Source: a virus
Lineage: Duplodnaviria; Heunggongvirae; Uroviricota; Caudoviricetes
Reading direction: 5' to 3' (one strand)
IMG/VR virus record: IMGVR_UViG_2703718795_000013
Coordinates: 1-23,641 of that record
Length of the DNA stretch: 23,641 bases
The stretch's first letter is position 1. Every line of letters begins with the position of its first letter. Below are positions 7,001 to 10,000 of this stretch, one piece after another. Made by a program: the position numbers.

Positions 7001-10000
7001 ACGTTGCATCCGCCGGAGTGCCGCTGTTACCATGCGGCGACGATCTTTATAAATGGTTGTACATGCCATTTGTTATTTCCCGTATGCTTTTCTGAGAAAC
7101 AGTATTGCAACTGACCAGTATCCTGCATTAGCCATTAATAATGCGGTTTTATAAGCGTTTCTATTTTTCATGCATCACCATTATTTTCTGGTTGTGGAAA
7201 TCCACGACCAGAGGCCGTCATGTTTTTATGTGTGATTTTTTACTGAGTGTTCTTTATTCGTTGCGTAGTGTTTCTATATACTCGTAAGCCATTTCACAGG
7301 TCTTATTCATGGAGCGAATGAGACAGCATAAATAATCGTCTGTCTCTCCTTGGTCGGGCGAATTCTTAAATATAAATTCAAGCATTGATGTATTCTCTTT
7401 TATTTGTGCCGCCACTTCCTCAAGAATATTTAATGGAGTTATCATGTTCTTTGCTCCTTAAATGCATCGCATGCGCTTCTGGCGTATTGTTGTGCCAGTA
7501 AAAAGATATCATCCGAAAGTTCATCACATTCTTCATCACCGGAAGCCGAAATGATTAACCCCGCTTCAAGCAGTACGGCAATGTGATGAAAAGCTGTCTC
7601 CGGTTCGTTGGTAAGGCCTTTGAACATTTTCATCTTATGCTTCCTCCTGATTTTGTTTATAAGCATCAGTCAATAACAACATTGGATCACAGCCAAGAAC
7701 ATTAGCCAGAGGGATAAGCATGCTGATGGTTGGTTCGTACTCTCCGCTTTCCCACTGGATGATAATTTCTTCATCGAGATCGAGCAGCCTGGCGAGTTCG
7801 GCGGTTGTTAAGCCGCAGGCTTCGCGTTGGGTGCGGATTTTATTTGGTTGTTTGTTGATTATGTGATTATGTAATGGATAAGTAGCAGACAGGGCGTATT
7901 CATGAACAAACTCCATGACTTCAAACCCCAATTCTTTAGAGCGATCACCATCAATTAAATGGAAAGTACGAGCAGCACCTACCAGATTTGCAATATTTAA
8001 TGCAAAGGATTCTTTTTCGAAGTGGTTTAAGTTCGATATCTCAGCGGTTGTCAGATCTTTCATTGAATCACCATCAATTTAAAATTAACAATAAATCAAG
8101 TTAAAATTGATGGTGTGATGTTAGATCTTGATTGACGGAGTTGTCAAGAAAAAATTGATTTCTGCGTCTCTTTTACTTGATTTGTAAATTTTTCTTTAAT
8201 AATCAATAATTAACCAAATCTATTTATATTGAATGGAACAGATGAGATTACCTTCGATTGGATATAAAGCAGCTCAAGAGCATCTTTTTCAATGCTCCAG
8301 GATTGGTAATTTGGGTTATCAGATAACACCATGATTTTACTTCCTATCTTTTGTAATCTTTTGACGTAGCATTCACCATCAAAGCAAAAAGCATAAATGC
8401 CATCACCATCAAAGTAATTCACTGTTTTATCGAGAAAAAGAAGATCTCCTGGGGCTATTGTTGGAGCCATACTATCTCCTCTTGCGTTACCAATCTCTAT
8501 GTTTTGAAATGCTCTATTGCCAACAAGGCGACGGGCATATTCAGGATCAAGCTCGATTGAGCGAACTACATCGATAAAGTCCCCACGGACATGTGTTCCA
8601 TCGCCGCAACTAAACTCAACATTGAGCACGTTAAAGACCACACTGTCAGTTCTTGCTTGATGTTTTTCCTTTGAAGAGAACTGCCGTGACGTGATTTCTC
8701 CTAAAAACCACGATTGCGGATAACCACTTATTTCGGATAACTGGGCAAGCCGGTTTCCCCTTGGAAATGTTTTTCCTGTTGTCCAGTACTGTACGGACTG
8801 TGCGCTGACACCTAATTTTCGGGCCAGCTCTGCTTGGCTCCAGCCTTTCTCCTGTAGCAGCTTTGTAATTCGATTTTCAGTGCTCTTTAAGTTTTTCATT
8901 GTTAATCCTTGCTGGTTACTTGGTTTCGATAAATTTTTACTTGATTTTAGTGTATTCGATCTTTTGTGGACTTGCATGTTAATTTAAACTTGATGTAATC
9001 TTGAATTTATAAAGTTTAGATTGGTGGGTTGCGATGAAAGGAAATGATTACGACGCACTTCGTGAGCTAATTGCACAAAATGCCATAGCGCGAAATCTAG
9101 GCGTTACGCCGCAAGCTGTGAACCAATGGTTTTCAAAAAGAACAATTCCTGCTCGTTTCGTCTTGCGTGTATGTGAAGTTGTGGAATGGAAAGTTACTCC
9201 TCATGGGTTAAGACCAGATCTTTATCCCCATCCTGAAGATGCAATCCCTGATTTGTTACGTAGAAGTCACACAGCCACAAATGCGGCAGTTATGAAAAAC
9301 GAATGATGAAGGGCTTGTATGTCCCAGAATTACGTTCAGACAGAGATGCCATCTAGGCACTGCCAGGCAGACGAAGAGTGGATTCAGCAGCAGTTACAGG
9401 GGCTGCCTCCGTCACTGAGACGGAAGGTCGCCCTGAAATATGCGGAGGTATACGAAATCACTTTTGACGCTGAGCCTGTTTCATTCCGCAAGGAGAACAG
9501 AGCAAGGCACGAAGCAAACACAAGGCTCCGCTTGTTTGTGAGAAATCAGGGCAGAGCTTTACAGGGGTATACAACTCAGCCGCCCCTGGCAGGAACGCAA
9601 TCGCGCTCCTGATTGGTACCGGGCTTAAAGGTGTCCGGTGGCTGAATCCCAAATCTCATTGCATTTTTGTACTAGTTAAAGAGTACGCACAAAATTCAAT
9701 GAGAGGAGGGGAGGGGGAGGAGTGCCCGTGTGTTAGTGCGAAGCACTGGAACAGGCTTTTCCAACAGACGGGTACATAGGTTAGGTAGATCTCGATCTAA
9801 AGGGGGATACCCCTGAAAAAACGGCTGTACCAGAAAGCTAGTACAAGATGGATAAAAAAGTATGAGTGAAGATCTGAAGCAAAATTTAATCGCTCTCCTG
9901 GAAGAGCAATTCATTCGCTCCGATGACAAAGTCGTTTTCGATTATGTGATGCAGAAAAAAATCAAGTCTCAGGGATACCACCTGCAACGCAATTTCAGCA

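Follow-up and report, generated by a model that had tools for sequence, protein, structure and literature searches.

Iteron-type phage origins are exemplified by lambda ori, located within O, by P4 ori/crr and by P1 oriL/RepL. In ColE1, no plasmid-encoded initiator protein is required: RNA II, transcribed from a promoter and folded into several hairpins, has a G-run that stays hybridised to the template C-run, and whether this hybrid is formed depends on how the RNA folds. At the R-loop origins of phage T4 (oriF, oriG), initiation proceeds from an R-loop made by a transcript, and the promoter is followed by an AT-rich unwinding element; at ori-c of G4 and the n' site of phiX174, folded ssDNA hairpins load primase or an SF2-type helicase (PriA, UvsW class). 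In mitochondria, the G-run/A/G-run block of CSB II in the non-template strand leads to a hybrid quadruplex R-loop that primes replication of mitochondrial DNA (H-strand) (PMC3488243). Among structured RNAs of early phage operons, HK022 put spans ~70 nt with two stem-loops, is found after both PL and PR, and binds the zinc-binding domain of the beta' subunit of RNA polymerase (PMC9378689). Eru1-type replication is carried by highly pathogenic EHEC, and two Eru1 phages show a spontaneous phage production ~8 log higher than that of 933W (PMC8044961). Neither an Eru1 origin nor the non-coding element analysed here appears in PMC8044961, PMC8951638 or the other literature searched.

The window, a stretch of 23,641 nucleotides from a Shiga-toxin prophage, contains a non-coding stretch of ~230 bases (9613-9861) that is hairpin-rich, bears G-runs and is widely conserved. 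The original prediction had described this stretch as a structured region without a credible ORF, either a replication origin or a structured RNA, and all the features that it listed are indeed present (Table 1). We found no conserved ORF in the region: all six frames are broken and small ORFs are not retained in relatives, including a 12-codon ATG ORF at 9699 and a 14-codon GTG ORF 3' of hairpin H1, both of which lose the start codon or the reading frame.

Table 1. Coordinates of the element and of its neighbouring genes in the window
Feature	Position	Strand	Description
up97	9319-9612	+	97-aa protein, phrog_852, directly upstream of the element
H1 hairpin	9618-9639	+	7-bp stem ACCGGGC/GTCCGGT, invariant 8-nt loop UUAAAGGU
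H2 long hairpin	arms 9654-9667 and 9691-9704	+	apical GTACT...AGTAC palindrome at 9669-9686
Polypurine tract	9701-9722	+	GAGAGGAGGGGAGGGGGAGGAG, 22 nt; contains the double G-run GGGGAGGGGG at 9708-9717
Three-way junction	9725-9772	+	outer stem P3 (9725-9732/9765-9772), encloses H3a and H3b
H3a	9735-9747	+	AGUGC-GAA-GCACU hairpin
H3b	9748-9762	+	GGAA...UUCC hairpin; invariant among the sequences compared
Conserved box	9773-9800	+	TACATAGGTTAGGTAGATCTCGATCTA; two GATC sites (9788, 9794), small hairpin TAGATC-TC-GATCTA
Variable 3' part	9802-9846	+	GGGG-GATA-CCCC (9802-9813), A-run, palindromic hairpin CTGTACCAGAAAGCTAGTACAA (9825-9846)
ORF122	9862-10230	+	phrog_1347; optional cassette that follows the element and precedes the helicase gene
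SF2 helicase (RadD-like)	10342-12000	+	replication module
Zn-ribbon/Toprim primase	12002-12970	+	replication module

The element is conserved in more than 130 distinct phage and prophage sequences from Enterobacterales (E. coli, Salmonella, Klebsiella and others), and its carriers include Fels-1, Klebsiella phages and Eru1/Oslovirus Stx2a phages; among deposited phage genomes, 98 contain it, mainly Stx2a-converting ones. In all 78 viral loci with enough sequence it lies between up97 and the helicase-primase genes, a homolog of up97 being upstream in every locus examined, and metagenome loci keep the same up97-element-helicase-primase order down to ~64% helicase identity. The gap between element and helicase gene is occupied by differing genes, or by none. 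An invariant core (9701-9800) comprises two coding-strand G-runs, a GNA-triloop hairpin, the GGAA/UUCC hairpin and the GATC-containing box, of which AGATC(A/T)C is the most widely retained part, and is flanked by accessory hairpins. Identity reaches 96% in the core versus 71% in the flanking genes among Klebsiella sequences, and 81% in the box versus 41% in the flanking genes among Eru1 phages. As judged from these alignments, the core appears to be under selection and is conserved above its neighbouring genes. What was an anonymous intergenic stretch is now a defined element, with a minimal core plus accessory hairpins.

The dense secondary-structure potential that had been anticipated was borne out, with a folding energy of -86 kcal/mol for the + strand (z = -4.8) and of -67.5 kcal/mol for the - strand (z = -3.8); the element is not the conserved unstructured leader that the original prediction had contemplated as its refutation. 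Judged by covariation, its best-supported helix is H1, which had been overlooked. Outside the core the classes are too divergent for one covariance model, and hand-anchored alignments yielded cleaner counts of pairs; in these, 42 distinct variants of H1 show 90% of cells paired and compensatory changes at six of the seven pairs; there are 58 compensatory cells, compared to 16.7±3.7 in shuffles (observed value reached in 0/500), and 26 G·T wobbles versus 5 A·C. H1 is doubled in tandem in some relatives and missing from the minimal form of the element. The two perfect short hairpins noticed originally fared differently: pairing of the GAA hairpin (H3a) is 100% across 17 distinct sequences, in four sequence versions and with compensatory changes at three of five pairs, but the GATA hairpin is kept in a subclass only. 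The enclosing CCCGT/ACGGG stem (9725-9729, 9768-9772; part of P3) is supported in part: it is 70% paired, and Klebsiella shows the compensatory version CCTGT/ACAGG. The 3' arm of H2 overlaps the start of the polypurine run, and other classes carry unrelated long hairpins at its position. Because compensatory changes and G·U wobbles are found on the + strand only, it is a single + strand that folds, be it RNA or displaced DNA. Covarying pairs on the transcribed strand are what would be expected of a structured cis-regulatory RNA, and single-stranded + DNA would fit the comparisons equally well.

The polypurine run was confirmed, and no other run of purines or pyrimidines in the 23.6-kb window is as long (22 nt, versus 16 nt for the runner-up); runs of at least 22 nt occurred in 3 of 500 shuffles. 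The tract is also the top G4Hunter window, with a score of 1.92. Of 136 distinct relatives, 135 carry the double G-run (G>=4, N1-3, G>=4) on the + strand, compared to 3% of shuffles, and none carries its C-run complement, i.e. the opposite orientation. At least four runs of three or more Gs occur in 58% of the relatives, but the window's own class has only two G-runs, which are insufficient for an intramolecular three-layer quadruplex. Taking the operon direction from the gene order cro, up97, helicase, Q, the double G-run is on the non-template strand of rightward early transcription and has a promoter upstream, as in R-loop origins.

GC content across the element is 0.47-0.49, without any unwinding-type dip in AT content, and the GC skew peak merely mirrors the G tract. 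No direct-repeat families beyond chance pairs were found in 9560-9900, although some other classes contain, by eye, tandem 8-mers (TAGACGTC/TATATGTC/TGGATGT), and the GATC sites are not enriched (two versus 0.9 expected). We found neither a promoter nor a + strand terminator inside the element, and no second copy in the leftward operon; the window contains only one instance each of the box, of the G-run pattern and of the H1 loop. The covariance-model scan that had been suggested found no family: Rfam 15 returned zero matches at gathering score across the region and, at E<=10, two chance-level matches only, to DUF805 RNA (16.3 bits versus a threshold of 51.1) and to a microRNA. All of the at least 120 matches listed in an 18-mer pattern search of genome contigs were due to chance, in GC-rich genomes, and those in a plasmid collection were limited to phage-like Klebsiella records of 37-42 kb, without replicon typing.

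Comparisons of up97 by sequence with Pfam, NCBIfam and PDB did not identify any family. Its AlphaFold model (pLDDT 64) contains three helices, the third of them Arg-rich (FRKENRARHEANTRLRLF), and a Foldseek search of PDB gave a best E no lower than 3.9. The product of ORF122 contains a D...ExD motif and weak PD-(D/E)XK hints; its single-sequence structure model is unusable (pLDDT 51), and its profile retrieved from PDB only a weak match to XisH (E = 0.33). The helicase-primase module is Eru1-like, and its helicase belongs to the RadD/UvsW type, whose substrate is branched DNA. In the module of the window, we recognised no initiator resembling O, Rep or DnaA, and no N-like protein was found among the window proteins.

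In the more distant relatives L382 and L372, up97, helicase and primase are kept, and the element is replaced by DNA of low complexity, by direct repeats spaced 22 bp apart and by a wHTH gene of 148-152 aa, which matches families of DnaD-like loaders and of replication initiators (E 2e-6 to 1e-4) and, weakly, that of RepL. In the distant relatives L377 and L386, up97 and the helicase gene are separated by only 31-75 nt, indicating that the module can exist with an empty slot and that its origin may be elsewhere, for example inside a gene. In locus L007, cI, cro and up97 are ~100% identical to the window and H2, the 3' part and the cassette differ, indicating recombination breakpoints inside the element. 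We considered, and rejected, that the class-specific palindromes (GTACYAG-N4-CTRGTAC, TAGACGTC, TAGCCGTCTAAACGGCTA and TTAGTTGC...GCAACTAA) are sites for a co-varying protein. They do not track with up97, helicase, primase or ORF285, and only partly with the downstream cassette; indeed, these four proteins are 95-100% identical between L007 and the window, yet the palindromes are different.

The element is most likely the site at which the helicase-primase module starts DNA replication, or else a regulatory RNA. Both options of the original prediction survive, narrowed by the conserved + strand fold, the linkage to the module and the slot equivalents. From sequence comparisons, we tentatively favour, with confidence somewhat short of even, that it is a cis-acting origin of the Eru1-type module that needs transcription and lacks a dedicated initiator protein. 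By analogy with ColE1 RNA II and mitochondrial CSB II, and with similarly guarded confidence, it would be a site of transcription-dependent R-loop/G-quadruplex initiation or of primosome loading. This reading draws on the strict linkage of the element to the helicase-primase module, the coding-strand double G-runs (the tract of the window being its top G4Hunter site), the single-strand folding (H1, H3a and the wobble excess), a core more conserved than adjacent genes, and the direct repeats and initiator-like gene found in the same slot of L382 and L372. It is also suggested by the lack of a recognisable initiator in a module whose helicase is of a type for branched DNA, together with the absence of any described Eru1 origin (PMC8044961), and by the hybrid-quadruplex precedent of CSB II (PMC3488243). 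Against it, the element lacks an AT-rich unwinding region, iterons and GATC enrichment; covariation and G·U wobbles are equally explained by a purely RNA function; the modules of L377 and L386 do without the element; ORF285 and DUF1367 could be initiators acting at another site; and the two G-runs of the window's class are too few for an intramolecular three-layer quadruplex.

Under the origin reading, early rightward transcription from the cro promoter would pass through the element, and the G-rich transcript of two or more non-template G-runs would make a persistent RNA:DNA hybrid, an R-loop that a G-quadruplex or an RNA-DNA hybrid quadruplex might stabilise. The single + strand would then adopt the conserved hairpins, either as RNA upstream of the hybrid, as displaced DNA, or as both, and hairpins and GATC box might together be where the SF2 (RadD/UvsW-like) helicase and the Toprim primase of the phage land, with up97 possibly recognising the UUAAAGGU hairpin loop. 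DNA synthesis would be primed by the RNA or by a primase product. Origin and RNA may in fact be one mechanism, in the form of a structured pre-primer transcript. The most specific version, in which Eru1-type phages start replication without an initiator protein through a co-transcriptional, G-quadruplex-stabilised R-loop in a folded leader read by up97 and the SF2 helicase/Toprim primase, is doubtful; if true, these bacterial viruses would have an equivalent of the CSB II origin of mitochondria, and replication, and through it the dosage of the toxin gene, would be tied directly to early-promoter derepression.

The likeness to CSB II consists of two long G-runs separated by 1-3 A/T bases in the non-template strand, with a promoter upstream and a proposed replication start. 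The element differs in being bacterial/viral and read by another RNA polymerase, in that its G-runs sit within conserved hairpins, with a GATC box after them, and in that transcription must reach essential downstream genes, so that termination cannot be complete. With respect to ColE1 RNA II, there is no antisense RNA I counterpart, no dedicated promoter and no sequence similarity, and here the transcript is part of a protein-coding operon, with the phage supplying an SF2 helicase and a Toprim primase. The sites of T4, G4 and phiX174 match the element neither in sequence nor in structure, and the AT-rich unwinding element of the T4 origins is lacking here. Like iteron-type origins, the element adjoins replication genes, and L372 and L382 seem to carry a cassette of that kind in the same slot, but in the window it is devoid of direct-repeat iterons, an AT-rich region and an initiator gene.

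The main alternative, that the element is a cis-acting structured RNA of the early-right (cro to Q) transcript, without any role in replication, is possible, though on the unlikely side. It might act in processive antitermination or anti-pausing, like HK022 put or Bacillus EAR, in phages without N, or in RNA processing or stability, possibly bound by up97 at the UUAAAGGU loop. This agrees with its location within an operon and its lack of a separate promoter, and also with the + strand-specific folding with G·U wobbles, a conserved hairpin loop that starts 5 nt past the up97 stop codon, and the co-occurrence of the up97 helix-3 motif type with the H1 loop type (102/103 versus 0/30), an association that is, however, confounded by shared ancestry. 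Moreover, Eru1 phages lack N, CII and CIII homologs and must still transcribe to Q (PMC8044961), and put works on RNA polymerase as RNA alone (PMC9378689). Nevertheless, put and nut occur in both early operons, and the element is single copy, with none in the leftward operon; we found no strong intrinsic terminator between element and Q; Rfam did not return anything above chance level even at E<=10; and the initiator-plus-repeats swap in L372 and L382 would be a coincidence. That the gene after the element differs between loci (ORF122, HNH endonuclease or helicase) speaks against translational control of one particular gene. The element shares with put and nut being a cis-acting structured RNA candidate in a lambdoid early operon, and Eru1-type phages, like HK022, are without N. 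It is set apart from put by its architecture, being a single copy of ~100-230 nt with G-runs and a three-way junction, and from lambda nut by an H1 loop of 8 nt instead of a boxB-type pentaloop, besides the lack of an N homolog. A boxA-like sequence (CGCUCCUGA) was discarded, as it is coding sequence and not conserved, and we did not find a lambda-type nut. A stable trans-acting ncRNA processed from the early transcript, such as a decoy or sponge for a host RNA-binding protein like CsrA or Hfq, an anti-defence RNA or an RNA quadruplex-based regulator, is quite unlikely. The strong and conserved + strand folding, the GGA motifs repeated in the polypurine tract and a core conserved above neighbouring genes would suit it, but no promoter or + strand terminator delimits a discrete RNA, GGA motifs vary in number between classes (GGGGGAAAGGGGG in class B), Rfam contains no match, and such an RNA would not be expected to be strictly tied in position to helicase-primase genes.

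The remaining explanations are less probable still. It is very unlikely that the junction is kept without the function of a folded molecule, as a target/homing site of the adjacent free-standing endonuclease genes or a linker for recombination between modules. The downstream slot does alternate between ORF122, with its nuclease-like motif, a NUMOD4+HNH endonuclease and nothing, and L007 shows breakpoints within the element, but compensatory changes that keep hairpins and an excess of G·T over A·C are unexpected for a DNA target, the element is retained at loci without any endonuclease, and the strand-specific G-runs would be left unexplained. A barrier to antisense transcription, shielding the immunity region from leftward transcripts, is highly improbable. 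On the minus strand, it would combine a Rho-loading site rich in C and poor in G, the polypyrimidine run there being indeed C-rich, with an intrinsic terminator, which the minus-strand reading of the CTGTACCAGAAAGCTAGTACAA hairpin resembles (hairpin plus T6, 9846-9825). This hairpin and its T-run are, however, restricted to a subclass, the wobble pattern marks the + strand as the one that folds, and Rho loading needs C-richness rather than precise double G-runs, a conserved junction and a box. Finally, the original prediction had seen in the edge repeats a likeness to retron msr-msd architecture, and a retron-like template is effectively refuted. The 9-nt inverted repeat TTGTACTAG/CTAGTACAA is perfect (9667-9675 and 9838-9846) and the interior is structured, but the two copies belong to separate local palindromic hairpins that need not match each other and do not co-vary as a pair. 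Locus L345 has a GTAC-type copy upstream and a different type downstream, and on both grounds the repeats are not a functional pair; mutual a1/a2 pairing is thus lacking. As had been noted, neither flanking gene encodes a reverse transcriptase, nor does any of the 18 window proteins scanned, and Rfam gave no retron match.

Were the element an origin, it would be a rare G-quadruplex/R-loop start site in a bacterial virus, and would give access to the replication of Stx phages and to toxin dosage; as an RNA regulator, it would define a new family of RNAs, for which a candidate protein partner is at hand. Under either reading, a few mutants would allow a direct test of how these phages replicate or control the early operon. 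As an example of the Eru1/Oslovirus Stx2a phages, TL-2011c comes from O103:H25, and Fels-1 is also of the Eru1 type.

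A Shiga-toxin prophage of lambdoid style makes up the window. Escherichia phage phi467 is nearly identical to it, and Salmonella phage Fels-1 is a relative. Both stxA and an 89-aa open reading frame 3' of it, a candidate stxB by its place, lie downstream of the antiterminator gene Q; two tRNA genes (17930-18080) come after the toxin genes, not before them. The helicase-primase pair is of the Eru1 type, a non-lambdoid replication module of Stx phages. Homologs of O, P, N, CII and CIII are absent from Eru1 phages (PMC8044961), and no origin is described for these phages in the Eru papers (PMC8044961; PMC8951638). 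One GenBank record labels a homolog of up97, the 97-aa protein encoded directly 5' of the non-coding element, as 'CII transcriptional activator', without evidence. A possible 19-codon open reading frame (ATGAAAACCACA..., window 10275-10345) overlaps the helicase start codon with its end.

Positions of genes, of parts of the element and of features in related loci
Feature	Locus	Positions	Strand	Remark
S24-type repressor	window	8210-8977	-	
cro-like gene	window	9034-9306	+	
up97, 97-aa protein	window	9319-9612	+	phrog_852
Non-coding element	window	9613-9861		
Hairpin H1	window	9618-9639		accessory
Hairpin H2	window	9654-9704		accessory
Polypurine run	window	9701-9722		
Core	window	9701-9800		
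Hairpin H3a	window	9735-9747		core
Hairpin H3b	window	9748-9762		core
GATC-containing box	window	9773-9800		core
Terminator-like hairpin	window	9846-9825	-	
ORF122	window	9862-10230	+	
SF2 helicase	window	10342-12000	+	
Zn-ribbon/Toprim primase	window	12002-12970	+	
ORF285	window	12970-13827	+	
Antiterminator Q	window	13827-14657	+	
stxA and putative stxB	window	16181-17416	+	stxA = phrog_866, E 8e-165
Element-to-helicase gap	window	9862-10230		
Element-to-helicase gap	L006	2731-3363		
Element-to-helicase gap	L007	2772-3374		
Element-to-helicase gap	L009	2590-2653		
NNAGAYGT-type repeats	L006/L007	2560-2590 and 2728-2751		
NNAGAYGT-type repeats	L351, L348			both sides of core

The polypurine tract, the hairpins, the enclosing stem and the inverted repeats at the edges listed in the original prediction were all found where it placed them. 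The 22-nt polypurine run is the longest homopurine/homopyrimidine run of the window, a length equalled in 3 of 500 shuffles, and its top G4Hunter site (score 1.92). We looked for a reading frame across the region and, in agreement with the prediction, found none open. The + strand folds at -86 kcal/mol (z = -4.8 against shuffled controls); the - strand also folds beyond shuffles, but less so (-67.5 kcal/mol, z = -3.8). A covariance scan, proposed with the prediction, gave no Rfam match at gathering score and only chance-level hits at E ≤ 10, and we found no description of the element in Rfam or the searched literature.

By BLAST, Fels-1 matched the element at 87%, phages of Klebsiella at 77-79%, and some 58-98 complete genomes of E. 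coli at identities grading from 100% to 72%. Several hundred further loci came from pattern scans of viral contigs, protein searches anchored on up97 and the helicase, and nhmmer, and a diverged version is present in the Eru1/Oslovirus Stx2a phages (98 phage records). The order up97 homolog, element, helicase-primase is kept in all 78 viral loci with sequence available, as well as in metagenome loci down to ca. 64% helicase identity; the two exceptions are both deleted prophages. In these (L249 and L252, 3300-5700), up97 and the element are followed by a TonB_C-like gene and a Nu1 terminase gene, and the helicase-to-lysis region is missing. The core is conserved beyond the adjoining coding DNA, with 96% identity against 71% for the flanking gene in Klebsiella, and 81% for the box against 41% for the flanking gene in Eru1 phages. 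NZ_CP076549.1 and 11 other plasmid-filed records of Klebsiella pneumoniae, which carry no replicon typing, are genomes of this phage type and probably represent phage DNA that is linear or was excised. Their sizes are mostly 37-42 kb, with three of ca. 150 kb and one of chromosome size.

Comparison between classes of the element separated core from accessory parts. Four pieces make up the core: at least two G-runs, in the pattern G4-8, 1-3 A/T, G4-8; H3a, a GNA-triloop hairpin of 5 bp, found in the classes with the closest core (A, B, C and the RT/RN type) and replaced by a different hairpin-forming sequence in A', E, F and the Eru1 class; H3b, a GGAA/UUCC hairpin, unrecognisable in the Eru1 class; and the box, whose 3' end is AGATC(A/T)C. 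An imperfect outer stem, P3, encloses H3a and H3b. In its minimal form, defined by one lineage, the element has only 20 nt between the stop codon of up97 and the first G-run, and no further part 5' of the runs. Three parts are accessory: H1, whose hairpin loop UUAAAGGU is invariant and which occurs in one or two copies; H2, a long hairpin of class-specific sequence; and a 3' part that varies and contains palindromic hairpins. Tandem H1 pairs, with unlike stems and the UUAAAGGY loop common to both, occur in several classes (L036, L247, L279 and related loci, class E/F; for example, L249 3294-3350). Just 5' of the ORF122 start, and in part of class A only, a hairpin followed by T6 resembles a terminator of leftward transcription. 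Non-GTAC classes show tandem 8-9-nt repeats NNAGAYGT (e.g. TAGACGTC TATATGTC TGGATGTA) on both core flanks; these may be short iterons, and we found no protein co-varying with them.

The 42 distinct versions of H1 are paired in 90% of cells, with compensatory changes in six of the seven pairs; doubly changed cells number 58 against 16.7±3.7 in shuffles, and none of the 500 shuffles came up to 58. Its covariation score is 0.58, and 0.15 or less with the partner columns slid. Every version of H3a (AGUGC, AGCGC, AGCCC, GCCGC) is paired; P3 pairs at 70%, and some of its changes are compensatory; H2 is kept within class A, with other long hairpins in its place elsewhere; H3b is invariant and thus uninformative on pairing. 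H1 shows 26 G·T wobbles against 5 A·C mismatches. On these pairing and wobble data, a single + strand folds, and protein-bound duplex palindromes are not the explanation. The folding molecule is then either the transcript of the rightward operon or the DNA of its non-template strand.

Among 136 distinct sequences 3' of up97 homologs, 135 have a double G-run on the + strand and none on the other strand (3% in shuffles). At least four nearby G3+ runs, the canonical quadruplex motif, occur in 58% of the 136, and the window's class has only two. Persistent R-loops and hybrid quadruplexes are known to arise from non-template-strand G-runs shortly 3' of a promoter, and in the best-studied case, mitochondrial CSB II, such G-runs are used to make the replication primer (PMC3488243).

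Of 103 cases with the up97 helix-3 motif NRAR(HE/HK)AN, 102 have the UUAAAGGY loop; of 30 with the RS, RT, RN or KA variants, none has it. This association could reflect a protein-hairpin recognition pair or just shared ancestry, which confounds it.

Between element and helicase lies ORF122, with a D...ExD motif and weak PD-(D/E)XK/XisH hints, or an I-HmuI-like endonuclease (NUMOD4+HNH_3), or nothing, so the element need not abut the helicase start. These cassettes look like free-standing homing-endonuclease genes beside highly conserved sequence. Two lineages, L382 and L372 (helicase 63% identical to the window's, up97 ca. 47%), keep up97, helicase and primase and have no G-run element. Its slot (1790-2504 and 1810-2501, respectively) contains low-complexity DNA, two copies of a 13-20-nt direct repeat at a distance of 22 bp, and a winged-helix (wHTH) gene of 148-152 aa. 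The wHTH gene matches families of DnaD-like loaders and replication initiators (E 2e-6 to 1e-4), with a weak match to RepL. An iteron-type origin with its initiator has this layout, and finding it at the position of the G-run element gives the strongest comparative hint that the element serves as the origin. At greater distance, L377 and L386 have nearly no spacer, which leaves the slot-equivalence argument suggestive, not proof.

Our proposals on function draw on sequence comparison. We tentatively favour a site of transcription-dependent initiation or primosome loading, in which the early transcript would form an R-loop anchored by the G-runs, the SF2 helicase (RadD/UvsW-like) and Toprim primase would be brought in by the GATC box together with the + strand in its folded form, and the H1 loop may be read by up97. 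Against an origin, an AT-rich region is absent, the window has no iterons and GATC is not enriched. Somewhat less probable is the main rival, a role of the element in the early operon through RNA alone, for example in the control of elongation or termination, or in processing. In favour of it, the element lies inside the operon, its H1 loop is conserved and the helix-3 variant of up97 tracks that loop, with the confounding mentioned; against it, the element is in single copy only, strong terminators downstream are absent, the following gene is not constant, and relatives have an initiator cassette in the same slot. Origin and RNA function would become one if the structured RNA were a pre-primer, as in ColE1. 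By mechanism, the closest analogues of the element are ColE1 RNA II, which is a bacterial analogue of CSB II, CSB II itself, T4 R-loop origins, ssi signals and put, although none is homologous to it. Lesser alternatives are a trans-acting RNA, an endonuclease target or recombination linker, a barrier to antisense transcription, and a retron; the retron-like inverted repeat at the edges resolved into two local palindromes, and L345 mixes two different types.
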